Shown piece after piece: positions 1-4,470 of a stretch of 4,470 nucleotides of DNA. This stretch comes from a virus (taxonomy: Duplodnaviria > Heunggongvirae > Uroviricota > Caudoviricetes). The notes beneath the pieces were generated by a model. The model saw only the letters and a program-made list of their open reading frames with translations, made no database searches and was not told where the DNA came from. The position numbers and the translations under genes were made by a program. Location of the stretch: the IMG/VR virus record IMGVR_UViG_2698536618_000013; one strand, written 5' to 3'. The stretch's first letter is position 1; each line of letters begins with the position of its first letter.

Positions 1-421
1 TCCAGTCCAGAATACGCAGTTCTTTGATCTGCCCCCGGGAGTTACGGATTTTCAGCACCACCGTATTGCCGTGACGCAGTTTGGCGTTCAGCCACAGTTC
101 AAAAAACTGGATACGATTCTGCTGGGCATTGGGACGACGACAGAGGCGGGCAATATCTCCCCGGCGCGTTTCCCTGCGTATCCCCTGCGCATCCGTCTGC
201 ATAAGACGCAGCCGCATTTTGGCGATATCCTGGGATATCAGCGAAATACATGCAAACACCGCATGAAAGGAGAGGACAGCTTCCGGATCGGCTTTCACGG
301 CCTGCTGCCAGGCGCCGGAAAAGGGCTCAGCCACCGCCTGAAACAGGCTGGTCCAGCCCGCCTCTTTTACATCACGTCCTGATTTCTGGTTTTTTCGGGT
401 TCGTCGCAAAAAGTTCCACAT
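1..421 (-). CDS. Phage portal protein (HK97-type / Phage_portal-like), N-terminal ~140 aa; 3' end runs off the window start
   Basis: Hand translation of the minus strand from ATG at 421..419 gives MWNFLRRTRKNQKSGRDVKEAGWTSLFQAVAEPFSGAWQQAVKADPEAVLSFHAVFACISLISQDIAKMRLRLMQTDAQGIRRETRRGDIARLCRRPNAQQNRIQFFELWLNAKLRHGNTVVLKIRNSRGQIKELRILDW, open to position 1. Not in the ORF track because there is no stop inside the window. An in-frame TAG lies two codons upstream of the ATG, and GGAG sits 8 nt upstream. The pattern (M-x-FxRR start, AV.AC[IV]..IS..IA, RRPN....F.E, GN...I.N..G.I..L) matches my recollection of portal N-termini; this is recognition from memory, not a search. Confidence 0.6.
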   Translation of the reverse strand, partial: MWNFLRRTRKNQKSGRDVKEAGWTSLFQAVAEPFSGAWQQAVKADPEAVLSFHAVFACISLISQDIAKMRLRLMQTDAQGIRRETRRGDIARLCRRPNAQQNRIQFFELWLNAKLRHGNTVVLKIRNSRGQIKELRILDW

Positions 422-632
422 TCGCTATGCTCCGCATCATGTTTCTTTTTCTGACCCGCCGGACGTCGCGCTGTGATGTACTCCGCCTTCATCAGGCGAA
501 CCAGCACCTCCGCACACGGCTGTGCGACATCCCGGATATCCCCGGGCCGGGCATCATGTGTACCCTGCAGATATCGGATTTTTGCCATCAGTTACTGCGG
601 GACGCTCTCACCTCCCGCCCTCCTCATCAGAC

Positions 633-2570
633 TCAGCCGCCGGACGCACTGCCGTAGTTCACACCGGTGATCACAGCCACCGCCGCAGTACGGCGACGAC
701 GCCAGTTGATCCAGCGCTCCGCACGGATGGCCACGCTGCCGGTCTGGAACATGGAAACCAGCTCCACCGGCGACGGTGTGGTGCTGTCGCCGCCCGGCTC
801 AGACTGCATTTCCAGTGACGCTTCACGGGACATATCCACTGCCACACCGCCGTCATCCGCCAGATAAATATCCGGTGCATTCACCAGTACCAGCTGGTCA
901 CCCACATACTGGGAGACAATCACCGGAAGCCCCTGAAAGATCCCGCCCAGCAGGGTCATGTCCGGATATTCCTTCTGACCCAGCGCATTTTTACGCATGG
1001 ACAGCGCCAGGGCATTCGTGCTGGACATCAGCCAGACAGCACCAGTGGGCTGCAGATTTGCCGTCACAAACTGGCCAAACGCGGCCTCGGCATCCGCATC
1101 CGGGTTACCGGTTGATGCCGTGCCCTTCACATCATGGGTGATGGACGCCGGGGAGACATCCGCCACCGCAGCTTTTTTCGGGTCCACAAAGTCTGTGTCC
1201 AGACGCGCCACCACCGCTTCTGCCAGCGCATTACGGACCAGTGCATCAGCTGCCGGACTGGAAAAACGGATCAATTCTTCCGTCAGTACCGCAATGGCCG
1301 ACACCTTCGCATGACTGAAGGTGATGGATTCAAAATCAAACTTCGTCAGGGGTTTTGCCTTACCCTCCCCCACCCAGCCGGCAGCACCGCCGGACACCTG
1401 GGCATGCACGCGGATATTGAACGGCACCTGACGAAGAGCAGGGATCCCGCCCTGACCAAATCGCCCGATAATGGTCTGAGGACGCAGGTAATCAATAAAG
1501 TCCTGTGCGTATTCCTGATATTCAGACAGGCTGCCTGCCCACTGTGGGTCCGTGGTGGTCCCTGCCCCCACCGCCGATTTCAGGACATGATGCAGACGGC
1601 TGTCATCCGGATACTGACGACGGGCCACTTCCAGGGCTTCAGAGCGGACACCTTTAGCCGCGGCCAGTGATTTGGCAAAGCGGGCGAAACCAATCCCCTT
1701 CTCCAGTTTCTGCTCAACACGGATCACCGGCGCTGAAGCCACCGTGGCCACATTCCCGTTACCGGCCTGTTTCACCGGCTGTGCCGTGGCGGCCTTACTG
1801 GTTTCCAGTTCACGCAGACGCTTCAGGTGCGCATCCACCTGACGGATTTCCGCTGCGGTGTTGTCGTAGTGCTCTTCCTCTTCCACATCCAGTGTGCGGC
1901 CTTCCTCTGCGGCTTTGTTCATGATCTCCTCAAGGGAGGCTGCCAGCGCCGCACGCTTGTTTTCAAAACTTTTAATCTGTTCACCAGTATTCATTGCTGA
2001 CTTTTCCTTATGAAAAGAGGTTATTGACTGTGCCGAAGCGCCGGCAGAAGATGCGATTTTCACCACCGGTTTCCGGTTGCCGGACGCGGCAGAAAACGGG
2101 CGGTCGAAATATTTAATGGTCCGGATGGTGCATTCCGCATTCGCGGGCACGGTGACGGCAGACACCTCCATCAGCTCCCAGCGCAGAAAATGCAGTCCGC
2201 CTCCGTCCAGATAAGTGTATTCATGGGGCCGGAAGCCCACAGAAAGCCCCCTGACCAGCCCGGTCTTAATGGCAGCCCAGGCCTCATCCAGCCGGGCTGC
2301 CATCTGGGAGGGCATCCCCGGATCCGGCTTCACCAGCATTGCCGTGATTTCCAGCCCTTCGCTGACCCGGCGTACCGTACACTGCCCCACCGGGCGGGAA
2401 TGGTCATGCTGCCAGAGAAACGGGATCGCACTGCCAAACTCCGCGCCCTCCGGCTCCAGGATGTCACCATCCCGATCCGGAGAAGGCGTTGACGCAATCC
2501 CGGTGATCACCCGTTCATCCTCACTGAAGGATTTCACCGTCAGCAGGGAACAGGCCCGTTTAAGAGTCAC
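633..2570 (-). CDS. Prohead protease (HK97 / peptidase S78-U35 type) – delta (scaffold-like coiled coil) – HK97-fold major capsid protein, single fused polypeptide (~645 aa)
   Basis: ORF track 633..2609 (658 aa). The N-terminal ~160 aa carry protease-like motifs FLWQHDHS (His 55/57) and GLSVGF (Ser 110). A coiled-coil-like segment follows (EQIKSFENKRAALAASLEEIMNKAAEEGRTLDVEEEEHYDNTAAEIRQVDAHLKRLRELE). The C-terminal ~370 aa look like a capsid shell domain (FDFESITFSHAKVSAIAVLTEELIRFSSPAADALVRNALAEAVVARLDTDFVD, ending ...VAIRAERWINW...). I place the start at GTG 2570..2568, 5 nt after AGGAGG (plus-strand CCTCCT 2576..2581), by exact nucleotide identity with the start region of the upstream paralog. 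The track's ATG at 2609 lies inside the paralog's coding sequence, has no ribosome-binding site and would translate through the AGGAGG. Stop TGA at 635..633. Confidence 0.85.
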   Translation of the reverse strand: MTLKRACSLLTVKSFSEDERVITGIASTPSPDRDGDILEPEGAEFGSAIPFLWQHDHSRPVGQCTVRRVSEGLEITAMLVKPDPGMPSQMAARLDEAWAAIKTGLVRGLSVGFRPHEYTYLDGGGLHFLRWELMEVSAVTVPANAECTIRTIKYFDRPFSAASGNRKPVVKIASSAGASAQSITSFHKEKSAMNTGEQIKSFENKRAALAASLEEIMNKAAEEGRTLDVEEEEHYDNTAAEIRQVDAHLKRLRELETSKAATAQPVKQAGNGNVATVASAPVIRVEQKLEKGIGFARFAKSLAAAKGVRSEALEVARRQYPDDSRLHHVLKSAVGAGTTTDPQWAGSLSEYQEYAQDFIDYLRPQTIIGRFGQGGIPALRQVPFNIRVHAQVSGGAAGWVGEGKAKPLTKFDFESITFSHAKVSAIAVLTEELIRFSSPAADALVRNALAEAVVARLDTDFVDPKKAAVADVSPASITHDVKGTASTGNPDADAEAAFGQFVTANLQPTGAVWLMSSTNALALSMRKNALGQKEYPDMTLLGGIFQGLPVIVSQYVGDQLVLVNAPDIYLADDGGVAVDMSREASLEMQSEPGGDSTTPSPVELVSMFQTGSVAIRAERWINWRRRRTAAVAVITGVNYGSASGG

Positions 2571-2598
2571 ATCAGCCTCCTGAAAATAAAAAAACCGC
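1746..2598. repeat. Tandem direct repeat, copy A (853 bp): covers the 5' ~825 nt of the protease–capsid fusion gene plus its AGGAGG site and upstream T-run
   Basis: By-eye alignment with 2602..3454 at a constant offset of 856 nt. 2339..2598 is identical to 3195..3454 (260 bp); 1746..2338 versus 2602..3194 shows roughly 40-45 substitutions and no indels (~93% identity, hand count). Confidence 0.95.
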
Positions 2599-3426
2599 AA
2601 AGGCCACATTCCCGTTACCGGCCTGTTTCACCGGCTGCGCCGTGGCGGCCTTACCGGCTTCCAGTTCACGCAGGCGCTTCAGGTGCGCATCCACCTGACG
2701 GATTTCCGCTGCGGTGTTGTCGTAATGCTCTTCCTCCTCCACATCCAGCGTGCGCCCTTCCTCTGCGGCTTTGGTCATGACCTCCTCAAGGGAGGCTGCC
2801 AGCGCTGCACGCTTGTTTTCAAAACTTTTAATCTGTTCGCCAATATTCATTATGGTCTTTTCCTTATGAAAAACGGTTGTTGACTGTGCCGCAGCGCCGG
2901 CAGAAGATGCGATTTTCACCACCGGTTTCCGGTTGCCGGACGCGGCAGAAAACGGGCGGTCGTAAGATTTAATGGTCCGGATGGTGCATTCCGCATTCGC
3001 GGGCACGGTGACGGCAGACACCTCCATCAGTTCCCAGCGCAGAAAATGCAGTCCGCCTCCGTCCAGAAAGGTGTATTCATGGGGACGGAAGCCCACGGAC
3101 AGCCCCCTGACCAGCCCGGTCTTAATGGCCGCCCAGACCTCATCCAGCCGGGCAGCCAGTTGCGACGGCATATCCGGTACGGGCTTCACCAGTGTTGCCG
3201 TGATTTCCAGCCCTTCGCTGACCCGGCGTACCGTACACTGCCCCACCGGGCGGGAATGGTCATGCTGCCAGAGAAACGGGATCGCACTGCCAAACTCCGC
3301 GCCCTCCGGCTCCAGGATGTCACCATCCCGATCCGGAGAAGGCGTTGACGCAATCCCGGTGATCACCCGTTCATCCTCACTGAAGGATTTCACCGTCAGC
3401 AGGGAACAGGCCCGTTTAAGAGTCAC
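2572..3426 (-). CDS. Prohead protease + delta/scaffold domain protein (284 aa); truncated tandem paralog of the protease–capsid fusion, lacking the capsid shell domain
   Basis: ORF track 2572..3426. GTG start at 3426..3424, 5 nt after AGGAGG (plus-strand CCTCCT 3432..3437). Residues 1-77 are nucleotide-identical to the fusion gene; both catalytic motifs (WQHDHS, GLSVGF) are intact. The ORF runs through the coiled-coil region to ...QAGNGNVA, then reads 9 junction-derived codons (FAVFLFSGG) and stops at TGA 2574..2572, one nt before the fusion's GTG start. Expression is not proven. Confidence 0.7.
   Translation of the reverse strand: MTLKRACSLLTVKSFSEDERVITGIASTPSPDRDGDILEPEGAEFGSAIPFLWQHDHSRPVGQCTVRRVSEGLEITATLVKPVPDMPSQLAARLDEVWAAIKTGLVRGLSVGFRPHEYTFLDGGGLHFLRWELMEVSAVTVPANAECTIRTIKSYDRPFSAASGNRKPVVKIASSAGAAAQSTTVFHKEKTIMNIGEQIKSFENKRAALAASLEEVMTKAAEEGRTLDVEEEEHYDNTAAEIRQVDAHLKRLRELEAGKAATAQPVKQAGNGNVAFAVFLFSGG
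2576..2581 (-). promoter_or_regulatory. Shine-Dalgarno AGGAGG for the protease–capsid fusion gene; it overlaps the last codons of the upstream paralog
   Basis: Plus-strand CCTCCT at 2576..2581, 5-nt spacer to GTG 2570. The paralog's TGA stop (2574..2572) sits inside that spacer. Confidence 0.7.
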
Positions 3427-3454
3427 ATCAGCCTCCTGAAAATAAAAAAACCGC
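2602..3454. repeat. Tandem direct repeat, copy B (853 bp): contains the 284-aa protease/scaffold paralog and its ribosome-binding site
   Basis: Same alignment as copy A. The copies are head to tail, separated by 3 nt (AAA, 2599..2601). Flanking unique sequence is accGTG|GCCACATT on the left (about 1741..1753) and AAACCGC|CGGAGCGG on the right (about 3448..3462). Confidence 0.95.
3432..3437 (-). promoter_or_regulatory. Shine-Dalgarno AGGAGG for the 284-aa protease/scaffold gene
   Basis: Plus-strand CCTCCT at 3432..3437 is AGGAGG on the minus strand, with a 5-nt spacer (CTGAT) to GTG 3426. Confidence 0.7.
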
Positions 3455-3464
3455 CGGAGCGGTT
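3438..3464 (-). terminator. Candidate intrinsic terminator or attenuator between the terminase and protease genes
   Basis: The minus strand reads AACCGC-TCCG-GCGGTT (6-bp stem with 4 GC pairs, 4-nt loop; plus-strand 3449..3464) followed directly by TTTTTTTATTTT, then AGGAGG and the GTG start. The stem is short, so this may be only a partial terminator. Confidence 0.4.
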
Positions 3465-3489
3465 CGTGATGGTTACAGTGTGAACAGGG

Positions 3490-4470
3490 TTATATGAAAA
3501 AAACCGCATATTCTTTCTTTTTCGGTTCCGGGTTAAGGGACATCAGGGAGACCGCATTGAACAGCGCCATCAGCGGGTCAATTTTTCCCCGTCCACTGGC
3601 CTGTTTGGTGATAAGAATGGCGTTACCTTTAGGCTCCACCCGGGCATTGCCGACACACCAGGCCATCAGGGGCTGGTCACCATGCACCAGCACCCCTTCA
3701 GCCAGTTTGCGCTCGGTGGTTTTAATGGCCCCGCCCAGTTTCCAGCCCTGGCTTATCCCCACCACAATTCCGTCGGGGATCCCGGCTTCCGCCAGTGAAT
3801 CCAGAATCTGCCCCACCCCTGACGGGTCAATACCGATATGGTCCAGTAACTCAGCCTCATGAATGCGACGCACATATTCCGCCACTTCCGCCGTGTCATC
3901 CCCGACACGCCGGACAATGGTCATATCTCCACAGGCAACAAGATCCTGAAACCGGGACGCCTCGCTCTTCCGTCGGACCACCGCGGTTTCATGCGCCCAG
4001 GCATGGCCCCAGCCCAGCCATTCGCGGGTCTCCCGGTCACGCCCAATCACATACATCCCCAGCAGATCATCCAGCCCTCCGCCGTCAATCCCCACCGTCA
4101 CCACATCAGCACGACGCAGGATATCGTCCAGGCTGATACAACGGCCCTGCTCTTCCCAGAAATCAGCCCCCGCCCAGCGGTCAGAGCGCAGGGCAAGACC
4201 AATTTCCACATTGGCGTGTTTTGACATGAACCCCCGGAATGTCTCTTCACCGGCTTCCCGGGCTTTACGGTACTCCCGGTACAGAAAGGCCTCATCCACC
4301 GAATAACCGAGATTCGGGTTAACCATGGCGAGATTTTCCATCAGCAGGTGAGCCCCGCTTTCCACCATTTCAGGAGGATGCTCAAAAATCACCGGCAGAA
4401 AGTGCGGATCATGAATTTTGCCGTCACGGACATCCCGGGCGTACTGCAGTTTCTGTCTGAACACCCCGGC
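3490..4470 (-). CDS. terL: Phage terminase large subunit, C-terminal (nuclease) portion; 5' end lies beyond the window end
   Basis: ORF track 3490..4464 (324 aa); the frame stays open to position 4470, so the track's GTG start is an artefact of the window edge. Motifs VTVGIDGGGLDDLLGMYVIGRDRE, IGIDPSGVGQILDSLAEAG and GNARVEPKGNAILITKQASGRGKIDPLMALFNAVSLM resemble the C-terminal nuclease region of Terminase_1-type large terminases, from memory. Stop TAA at 3492..3490. Confidence 0.8.
   Translation of the reverse strand, partial: AGVFRQKLQYARDVRDGKIHDPHFLPVIFEHPPEMVESGAHLLMENLAMVNPNLGYSVDEAFLYREYRKAREAGEETFRGFMSKHANVEIGLALRSDRWAGADFWEEQGRCISLDDILRRADVVTVGIDGGGLDDLLGMYVIGRDRETREWLGWGHAWAHETAVVRRKSEASRFQDLVACGDMTIVRRVGDDTAEVAEYVRRIHEAELLDHIGIDPSGVGQILDSLAEAGIPDGIVVGISQGWKLGGAIKTTERKLAEGVLVHGDQPLMAWCVGNARVEPKGNAILITKQASGRGKIDPLMALFNAVSLMSLNPEPKKKEYAVFFI

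Follow-up and report, generated by a model that had tools for sequence, protein, structure and literature searches.

A protease-scaffold-capsid fusion gene of lambdoid Escherichia coli prophages and a candidate translation start within it

HK97 encodes its prohead protease and its major capsid protein separately, as gp4 and gp5. In the 4,470-bp stretch of DNA analysed here (the window), an earlier note had described a single reading frame of about 645 aa that joins a protease domain, a coiled-coil delta/scaffold segment and a capsid shell domain, together with an extra free protease-scaffold copy, and had correctly set it against the two-gene arrangement of HK97. The locus raises the question of whether the fusion is genuine and, if so, how many proteases it delivers to each procapsid. 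It also raises the question of whether the extra copy belongs to the phage at all.

One reading frame for protease, scaffold segment and shell protein

The fusion gene, its domains and its neighbours on the contig are as follows.

633..2570, minus strand: fusion gene of prohead protease, linker, delta/scaffold coiled coil and HK97-family major capsid protein (645 aa, ORF list)
2100..2570, minus strand: protease domain, residues 1–157 (Pfam S78, HK97 gp4 BLASTP, conservation, AF2)
2408..2406, minus strand: codon of the putative catalytic His55 (gp4 alignment and conservation)
2243..2241, minus strand: codon of the putative catalytic Ser110 (gp4 alignment and conservation)
1785..1994, minus strand: delta/scaffold-like helical segment, residues 193–262 (AF2, profile, unfused relatives)
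636..1718, minus strand: capsid shell region, about residues 285–645, HK97-family major capsid protein (Pfam, profile matches to solved major capsid proteins)
3490..4470, minus strand: 3' part of the terminase large subunit gene, running off the contig end (Pfam TerL_nuclease; RefSeq annotation of locus L001)
367..588, minus strand: conserved ORF of 73 aa and unknown function, assigned to PHROG 829 and located between capsid gene and portal gene (ORF list, PHROG)
1..421, minus strand: 5' part of the portal gene, running off the contig end (called gene with PF04860 in locus L002; RefSeq annotation)

The fusion gene starts with GTG at 2570, with GGAGG ahead of it, and stops at 635..633. The stop-to-stop ORF (2609..633) encodes 658 aa when counted from an ATG that arises at the duplication junction described below. 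The native GTG gives 645 aa and reproduces exactly the extent assigned to the gene in the earlier note. RefSeq CDSs of identical length are present in three complete-genome loci (L001, L003 and L004), and the match to PHROG 617 spans residues 1–639 of the protein, end to end.

Both expected domains were found by Pfam in the same polypeptide and above their cut-offs. Peptidase_S78 (PF04586) matched residues 48–151 with 33.1 bits (cut-off 21), and Phage_capsid (PF05065) matched residues 386–635 with 51.4 bits (cut-off 24.2). The protease part shares 30% identity with HK97 gp4 over 148 residues by BLASTP. In this alignment Ser110 pairs with gp4 Ser114 and His55 is offset by one column from gp4 His65, the two residues which we take to be catalytic in gp4, so the His/Ser motifs claimed earlier are present and can be aligned to a known protease. 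H55, S110 and E135 are each at least 90% conserved among 114 relatives of 36–55% identity, the set used for all residue-conservation counts. AF2 modelled a beta-rich domain at residues 6–140 with pLDDT of about 75. The protease part is a predicted S78 (HK97 gp4-like) serine prohead protease.

The coiled-coil delta/scaffold segment was likewise borne out by the model, which predicts helices at residues 195–222 and 229–261 (pLDDT about 73). Positions 196–266 of the family profile align with residues 4–74, the N-terminus, of the solved major head protein 9gyi_B, and unfused relatives begin at query residues 193–197. For the capsid part, the family profile matched solved major capsid proteins in the PDB (9d9w, 3.5e-18; 8gta, 4.7e-11; 5tjt, 4.2e-5). 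BLASTP detected no significant similarity between the capsid part and HK97 gp5, and the homology is visible only through profiles. The AlphaFold prediction, made from a 31-sequence alignment of 73–96% identity, was usable for the protease core and the delta helices but unreliable for the capsid part: residues 337–645 had pLDDT below 50, and the mean for the whole model was 43.7. Because of this, it is the sequence profiles and not the model that point to an HK97 fold of the capsid part.

The gene is widespread. The 3,614-bp single-copy version was found in 1,250 of the 5,426 complete E. coli genomes. The gene module, with the order TerS-TerL-fusion-portal-connector-tail in locus L001, occurs in up to 7 copies per genome, giving about 2,900 copies across these genomes. 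The same gene is present in 93 phage records, including those of the Stx phages 1717, 2851, YYZ-2008 and BP-4795, under the annotation 'major head protein/prohead protease', and the belief that such fusions had been annotated in prophages was therefore right. The protein cluster of the fusion holds 9,916 member sequences. Orthologues of 644–648 aa with about 75% identity occur in Salmonella, Enterobacter, Klebsiella, Serratia and Pantoea, and full-length fusions make up about 130 of the best 150 representatives of 50%-identity clusters. A search for related loci, built on a 13-sequence alignment, recovered 80 loci from many phyla; the single ORF was retained in 68 of them and separate genes were found in 8. 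Neither a stop codon nor a frameshift separates the protease and capsid parts in the window, in the complete genomes inspected or in those 68 distant loci.

That a sequencing error or a pseudogene has falsely merged two genes is effectively refuted by this conservation of the frame and has negligible probability: no support for it was found, although 8 of the 80 relatives do have separate genes, and against it stand the same 645-aa frame in about 1,250 complete genomes, the orthologues in other genera and the full-length fusions that persist at 38–54% identity. The gene is a three-domain fusion in one ORF, with an intact frame that is conserved from E. coli to other phyla. It falls within the protease-scaffold-capsid fusion genes ('major capsid and protease fusion protein'; PHROG 617/4523), having both domains in one uninterrupted ORF that its relatives share. 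Such a gene is already known. Among very common E. coli prophages, Shiga-toxin phages included, it is a standard, annotated head gene.

A candidate internal start at Met193

The earlier note had reasoned that a covalent fusion makes every capsid subunit carry its own protease. This is not established, because the gene may also make a protease-free capsid protein. Two features at the boundary between the protease and the delta segment bear on this.

1995..2099, minus strand: poorly conserved linker, residues 158–192, between protease and delta (gappy, variable alignment columns; AF2 pLDDT below 40)
1992..2009, minus strand: candidate internal translation start, with AAGGA at 2009..2005, a 10-nt spacer and the ATG of Met193 at 1994..1992 (sequence and conservation)

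Met193 is kept in 104 of the 114 relatives, within a linker that is otherwise unconserved. An in-frame start codon stands 3–8 codons ahead of the conserved EQI motif in 71 of 72 candidate loci scanned, and it is ATG in 65. An SD-like core was found at the position of the internal start in 65 of the 68 fused genes examined. The anti-SD duplex energy at the internal start averaged −7.3 kcal/mol, versus −2.6 kcal/mol at 898 further ATGs that lie in frame within these genes. The SD-like motif occupies different codon registers among relatives (AAG GAA versus AAA GGA). In the 8 split-gene relatives, the capsid gene begins at, or within a few codons of, the Met homologous to Met193. The loci behind these internal-start counts are not phylogenetically independent of one another.

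The gene family thus has what would be expected of a nested gene, a conserved internal in-frame start with a ribosome-binding motif at the domain boundary, and the motif is weak in the window itself: AAGGA with 10-nt spacing gives −6.2 kcal/mol, at the 14th percentile of gene positions. Resampling of synonymous codons at the SD motif yielded a weak excess (median 0.29), which argues weakly for selection at the nucleotide level, so a Lys/Glu/Gly-rich linker could mimic an SD. As for the methionine, Met193 could instead be conserved as the hydrophobic residue that opens the coiled coil.

A protease-free delta-capsid product is plausible because the conserved start and the SD-like motif lie at the protease/delta boundary and the split relatives start there. 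From these signals we lean towards a second product initiated at Met193, which would be a delta-capsid protein of 453 aa without the protease. The broader proposal, that the fusion is a two-product nested gene throughout this widespread prophage family and that the ratio of the two initiations sets the number of proteases per procapsid, strikes us as evenly balanced between right and wrong.

The main competitor is that the full-length 645-aa chain is the sole product. Each of roughly 415 shell subunits would then bring a protease, which would be removed by autoproteolysis together with the delta segment. The uninterrupted ORF, the strong GGAGG ribosome-binding site at the GTG and the weakness of the internal SD-like motif in E. 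coli all suit such a scheme. So does space: by our own rough estimate from HK97 prohead dimensions, about 415 × 32 kDa (13 MDa) could be accommodated in a T=7 procapsid. It does not account for an in-frame start and SD-like motif conserved at the exact domain boundary, or for split relatives that use the equivalent of Met193, and a Met without function would be expected to have been lost from an otherwise unconserved linker at 38–55% protein identity. We regard a full-length-only gene as a serious possibility but hold it to be somewhat doubtful.

The internal start signal at Met193 is the one new point here. No paper stating the two-product nested reading was found in a search that left most subscription journals outside, and HK97 specialists may already know of it.

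The 856-bp duplication and the 284-aa ORF

Upstream of the fusion gene, the window carries the extra protease-scaffold copy.

1746..3457, strand not applicable: direct tandem duplication of 856 bp, copy B at 1746–2601 and copy A at 2602–3457 (repeat comparison)
2572..3426, minus strand: 284-aa ORF, a duplicate of the protease, the linker and most of delta, residues 1–275 (ORF list, Pfam)
3448..3465, minus strand: terminator-like hairpin and T-run that separate the terminase gene from the protease start, with the duplication boundary inside

The two copies are 94.5% identical. All internal mismatches fall within 1782–2338, and 2339–2598 is 100% identical. Over the variable part (593 bp), copy A matches one widespread allele at 100% identity and copy B matches a second allele at 99.8%; both alleles occur in separate prophages of one complete genome. 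The junction at 2599–2601 reads AAA on the plus strand (TTT on the gene strand) and adjoins a 5-nt microhomology, GCGGT. The 284-aa ORF matches Peptidase_S78 with 37.2 bits in Pfam. Its last 9 residues, FAVFLFSGG, are encoded by the duplicated ribosome-binding region, and its stop codon precedes the fusion gene's GTG by 1 nt.

No full-length match to the junction was found in the 5,426 complete E. coli genomes, 50,697 phage records, IMG/VR, GTDB species genomes or JGI metagenomes, and the exact 284-aa product is absent from a collection of 15 billion proteins. The contig of the sibling allele (L006, 4,477 bp) was considered as a second carrier of the duplication and was ruled out, since it has a single copy.

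Probably the strain lacks the duplication and its ORF, and the assembly of a short-read draft genome wrongly joined two paralogous prophage alleles. The window is the entire contig CYGF01000095.1 of draft assembly GCA_001285485.1, and both of its ends lie inside genes. In draft assemblies this multicopy module typically sits in contigs of 2–5 kb. The two copies are different natural alleles, whereas a fresh duplication should give identical copies, and neither the junction nor its product recurs in the collections searched. The boundary also lies in a GC hairpin and T-run, where short-read contigs often break. Two observations go against a mis-join: the contig is recorded in 2 samples, and the junction has a 3-nt insertion beside the GCGGT, where a simple mis-join would be expected to leave a clean k-mer overlap or a stretch of Ns. 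Because of the 3-nt insertion, the junction is explained exactly neither by de Bruijn-graph logic, judged by how far it lies from the last allele difference, nor by a clean microhomology join.

A real duplication, arising by illegitimate recombination between co-resident prophages or by duplication followed by gene conversion, would provide a separate, translationally coupled protease-scaffold gene and a higher protease dose. The 5-nt microhomology at the hairpin is a plausible template-switch site, the 284-aa ORF is intact with its His and Ser kept and its stop 1 nt before the next start, and relatives with naturally separate protease genes exist. Weighing against this are the single occurrence on a short draft contig, the allelic difference between the copies, the absence from all other collections searched, and a product that ends in a truncated delta segment followed by 9 out-of-context residues. 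We consider a real duplication somewhat less likely than not, and rated the mis-join likelier.

The free protease-scaffold copy reported in the earlier note is therefore present in the sequence, but the unusual stoichiometry argued from it is doubtful, since the copy comes from a contig-specific duplication in which two different alleles are joined. The 284-aa ORF lies outside the normal system and derives from a duplication that, among the sequences searched, is peculiar to this draft contig. Until reads confirm it, the apparent extra protease gene is unfit for biological arguments, and the case illustrates how gene duplications can be mimicked by paralogous prophage alleles in short-read drafts.

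Proposed head assembly and comparison with known systems

We are highly confident that 633..2570 encodes the head shell of an E. coli prophage of the long-tailed lambdoid (Stx-phage) type, taking this explanation as a whole with the following assembly scheme and the possible second product. By analogy with HK97, lambda and herpesviruses, the capsid part of the full-length chain would co-assemble into the procapsid shell, and because that part joins the shell, the protease and delta parts are proposed to end up inside the procapsid. After assembly the protease would excise both itself and the delta segment, and roughly 300–350 residues would remain as the mature shell protein. Initiation at the 5' GTG would give a protease-tagged capsid subunit and initiation at Met193 an ordinary delta-capsid subunit. 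A subset of subunits would then deliver the protease, as in lambda C/Nu3 and herpesvirus UL26/UL26.5, and the number of proteases per procapsid would follow from the ratio of GTG to Met193 initiation. The sources searched yielded no expression, proteolysis or particle data for this gene, and a literature search found no virion proteomics for this phage group.

The closest known systems are the Stx/lambdoid E. coli prophages whose 'major head protein/prohead protease' (1717, 2851, YYZ-2008, BP-4795; PHROG 617) is the same gene, with 645 aa and the same neighbours. Their records are 96–97% identical to the whole window at the nucleotide level, the duplication excepted; they have one copy, whereas the window has the extra 856-bp tandem protease-scaffold copy. 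HK97 gp4/gp5 resembles the fusion in its S78 protease with aligned His/Ser and in the N-terminal helical scaffold segment before an HK97-family shell domain, and the module here, too, has no separate scaffold gene. It differs in having two genes in the order portal-protease-capsid, whereas here there is one ORF and the portal gene lies downstream of the capsid gene.

Lambda C/Nu3 makes a long protease-assembly product and a shorter, 3'-coterminal in-frame product without the protease. The window has sequence signals for such nested long and short products. In lambda and in herpesviruses, however, the nested product is the scaffold, whereas here it would be scaffold plus shell protein. Nested expression of protease and scaffold is described for herpesvirus UL26/UL26.5 (PMC11565193). 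Herpesviruses achieve this with a separate promoter instead of an internal ribosome-binding site. Single genes for protease, scaffold and capsid have been reported for gp5 of Pseudomonas phage MD8 (PMC8508860), and equivalent fusions for small actinobacteriophages (Microbacterium cluster EE/EL, Arthrobacter AN and others; PMC7302621), also in genome announcements. These share the three-part architecture in one gene but belong to different sequence families and hosts, and an internal start is not discussed in these publications.

The conserved internal start offers a cheap, testable hypothesis on how these phages set the stoichiometry of protease to shell protein. If it is true, the annotation of thousands of 'major capsid protein' genes would be refined, and the gene would be a bacterial parallel to herpesvirus UL26/UL26.5. 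The two-product reading, if true, would extend the logic of lambda C/Nu3 and UL26/UL26.5 to the shell protein itself, and it would account for the ease with which lineages switch between fused and split genes.

Gene layout and domains of the fusion protein

The fusion gene is real and already known. According to the ORF listing, the minus strand carries every gene in the window.

4470..3490 (-): terminase large subunit gene, 3' part (Pfam TerL_nuclease)
3465..3448 (-): terminator-like GC hairpin with T-run, between the terminase stop and the fusion-gene ribosome-binding site
3426..2572 (-): 284-aa ORF (ORF listing)
2570..633 (-): fusion gene, 645 aa, GTG start at 2570 behind GGAGG
588..367 (-): 73-aa ORF (PHROG 829, E = 2e-36)
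421..1 (-): portal gene, 5' part, matching the start of the portal region at 3837-6421 of L001, a module copy in a complete E. coli genome

An ATG at 2609 gives a longer ORF of 658 aa ending at 633; the native start is the GTG at 2570, which reproduces exactly the single 645-aa frame at 633..2570 read in the earlier note. HK97 encodes protease and capsid separately as gp4 and gp5, a difference that the earlier note drew correctly, whereas here they are fused in one ORF, which would work like gp4 and gp5 joined in one chain. The HK97 order is TerL, portal, protease, capsid; here it is TerL, protease-capsid fusion, small ORF, portal, so that the portal gene comes after the capsid gene, not before it as in HK97. 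In the complete genomes inspected, RefSeq gives the module as HNH, TerS, TerL, fusion, 73-aa ORF, portal, connector and tail. The 73-aa ORF (367-588) between the capsid and portal genes is conserved, shares about 55 nt with the portal start and is labelled 'hypothetical protein' in all relatives. At L001 3837-6421, as in every copy inspected, RefSeq has a pseudogene of 2,585 nt labelled 'phage portal protein, frameshifted', and the DNA holds two intact ORFs of 454 aa (the true portal, PF04860) and 407 aa with an ATGA overlap. The label is probably a systematic mis-annotation, or reflects a conserved two-gene or frameshift arrangement.

When the domain search was run on the 645-aa protein, Peptidase_S78 (residues 48-151) and Phage_capsid (386-635) were both found over the curated Pfam thresholds. 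The N-terminal 150 residues are 30% identical to HK97 gp4, with Ser110 opposite gp4 Ser114 and His55 one column off gp4 His65. H55, S110 and E135 are each at least 90% conserved among 114 relatives (36-55% identity). The profile of these relatives matched solved capsid proteins (9d9w, 3.5e-18; 8gta, 4.7e-11; 5tjt, 4.2e-5), and its positions 196-266 aligned with residues 4-74 of 9gyi_B, a solved head protein; this stretch is the scaffold-like N-terminus of a capsid protein that stands alone. In the AlphaFold model the protease core (6-140) is usable (pLDDT about 75), two long helices are predicted at 195-222 and 229-261 (pLDDT about 73), and the model is not reliable for the capsid part (mean pLDDT 43.7). 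Together, the Pfam, gp4-alignment, conservation, profile and AlphaFold results give the following layout.

Residues 1-157: protease
Residues 158-192: variable linker
Residues 193-262: delta/scaffold helices
Residues roughly 285 to 645: shell domain

The earlier proposal of a protease with His/Ser motifs, a delta/scaffold segment and a capsid domain in one chain was thus borne out.

Distribution of the fusion

The window was matched by 1,260 records from 1,255 of the 5,426 complete E. coli genomes (90-97.5% identity) and by 93 phage records, including Stx phages 1717, 2851, YYZ-2008 and BP-4795. RefSeq annotates an intact 1,938-nt CDS in each complete genome inspected, and the phage records carry labels such as 'major head protein/prohead protease', 'putative major head protein/prohead proteinase' and 'capsid and scaffold', in agreement with the earlier note, which expected such fusions to be annotated in some prophages. 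Nowhere in the E. coli lineage was a stop or frameshift found between the protease and capsid parts. An end-to-end match to PHROG 617 takes in residues 1-639 (E = 7e-258). Fused proteins make up other families too, among them PHROG 4523 ('major head and protease protein'), and the 90%-identity cluster holds 9,916 member sequences. The gene belongs to a family of protease/capsid fusions that is already annotated in lambdoid E. coli prophages, where the same gene is found at 96-97% identity.

Orthologues of 644-648 aa with about 75% identity are found in Salmonella, Enterobacter, Klebsiella, Serratia, Pantoea and Kosakonia. Among the best 150 representatives of 50%-identity clusters (38-56% identity), about 130 give one continuous alignment along the full length. 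Among 80 related loci in GTDB species genomes, 68 have one uninterrupted ORF, and these span Alpha-, Beta- and Gammaproteobacteria, Flavobacteriaceae, Clostridia, Acidobacteria and one Mycobacterium MAG. The same architecture has been published for gp5 of Pseudomonas phage MD8 (PMC8508860) and for small actinobacteriophages (PMC7302621), and genome announcements routinely use the label 'Major capsid and protease fusion protein'.

In NZ_CP027331.1 and three related genomes (matches H73-H76), an IS1 insertion interrupts the fusion gene, and the annotation there lists separate fragments, 'HK97 family phage prohead protease' and 'phage major capsid protein'. Some relatives are longer: P0002 (1,079 aa, E. 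coli) has a terminase domain (PF03354) in addition, P0003 (784 aa) a portal domain, and P0137 and P0148 (about 1,090 aa) an N-terminal extension of 440 aa. These may be further fusions, or assembly or frameshift artefacts.

The tandem duplication

An 856-bp direct tandem repeat accounts for the 284-aa ORF.

1746-2601: copy B
2602-3457: copy A

Identity between the copies is 94.5%; all 44 internal differences are confined to 1782-2338, and the 5' 260 bp (2339-2598) show none. The 275 codons that the copies share contain 19 synonymous and 18 non-synonymous differences. The left boundary of the duplication is inside the hairpin at 3448-3465. In every genome or phage record that matched, the match is 3,614 bp long, equal to the window less one repeat unit. 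Across the complete E. coli genomes and the phage records, coverage of a 91-bp junction probe never exceeded half its length, the exact junction was not found in IMG/VR, GTDB species genomes or JGI metagenomes, and the 284-aa protein was absent among 15 billion catalogued proteins.

The window is the entire 4,470-bp contig CYGF01000095.1 of draft assembly GCA_001285485.1. The module is present up to seven times per complete E. coli genome, and in draft assemblies it typically falls in 2-5-kb contigs. A fresh duplication should give identical copies, whereas A and B are different natural alleles: the variable 593 bp of copy A are 100% identical to the commonest allele, the variable part of copy B is 99.8% identical to a second one, and both alleles occur in separate prophages (L003, L004) of one complete genome, PV15-279. 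A mis-join of paralogous prophage sequences would be expected to look like this, with two known alleles one behind the other in a short contig of repeat sequence, and the duplication is more probably than not an assembly artefact. However, the junction is no clean overlap: the native contexts are GGCC-GCGGT-GGC (allele A) and GCGGT-TTTTTT (intergenic hairpin), and the contig reads GGCC-TTT-GCGGT-TTTTTT, a 5-nt microhomology with a 3-nt insertion. The contig was also recorded in two samples, and a real strain-specific rearrangement is a possible, less favoured explanation. Artefact or real, the duplication is no trait of the phage family. The extra protease-scaffold ORF pointed out earlier is present, but the stoichiometry argument should therefore not rest on this contig-specific copy, which is a cautionary case.

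Mosaicism is strong in the contig, different 500-bp segments being closest to different prophages (L001, L003, L004). Positions 601-1745 are 99% identical to L001 and 94-97% to L003 and L004, and positions 1-600 are 90-95% identical to all three alike, consistent with frequent recombination among co-resident lambdoid prophages.

A candidate internal start and head assembly

In 104 of the 114 relatives, a Met (Met193 here) lies 2-4 residues ahead of the conserved 'xEQI' with which the delta helix starts, in a linker that is otherwise unconserved. Within a search window of 10 codons, 71 of 72 scanned loci have an in-frame start codon there (ATG 65, GTG 4, TTG 2); the Met of locus L080 is just beyond it. 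Of 68 fused genes examined, 65 have a GGAG/GAGG/AGGA/AAGG/GGGG core at -17..-5. For the anti-Shine-Dalgarno duplex, the mean predicted energy is -7.3 kcal/mol versus -2.6 kcal/mol for 898 other in-frame ATGs of the same genes, and values of -10 kcal/mol or below occur at 26% of internal-start sites versus 0.1% of controls, the loci compared being phylogenetically related. In many loci this SD-like site is the strongest in the whole gene. The residues encoded by the motif vary (KEG, KGK, QEK, SE, GD) and Enterobacterales use the same AAGGAAA in two codon registers, which points to selection on nucleotides. Synonymous resampling gave little excess (median 0.29), so most of the SD-like signal is carried by amino-acid choice. 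The window has cat-AAGGA-aaagtcagca-ATG at 2009..1992, with the same motif in copy A; this E. coli-lineage motif is a weak one, at -6.2 kcal/mol and in the 14th percentile of the gene's positions.

In eight split relatives the capsid gene starts at the homologous Met or a few codons off, after a frame change in five (L079, L081, L082, L084, L086) or an in-frame stop in three (L065, L066, L085). Unfused cluster representatives start at query residues 193-197. Very small changes switch related lineages between fused and separate genes: the ATG and the TGA stop of L079 share bases, and the SD-like TAAGGA of L066 and L085 contains the TAA stop. From these comparisons, we lean slightly towards a second, protease-free product of 453 aa made from the conserved internal start. 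No paper making this point was found in the literature searched, the key HK97 reviews being outside the search.

By analogy with the assembly of HK97, lambda and herpesvirus capsids, the full-length chain would build the procapsid shell with its capsid part, leaving the N-terminal protease and delta segment inside; after assembly, the protease would excise itself and the delta segment. By a rough estimate, 415 copies of the 32-kDa N-terminal part (about 13 MDa) would fit a T=7 procapsid, and one protease per subunit, as the earlier note supposed, is therefore physically possible. Lambda C/Nu3 is a parallel to the putative protease-free second product. The internal-start hypothesis is testable, and if the 453-aa product is made here, herpesvirus UL26/UL26.5 (PMC11565193) would be a further parallel.
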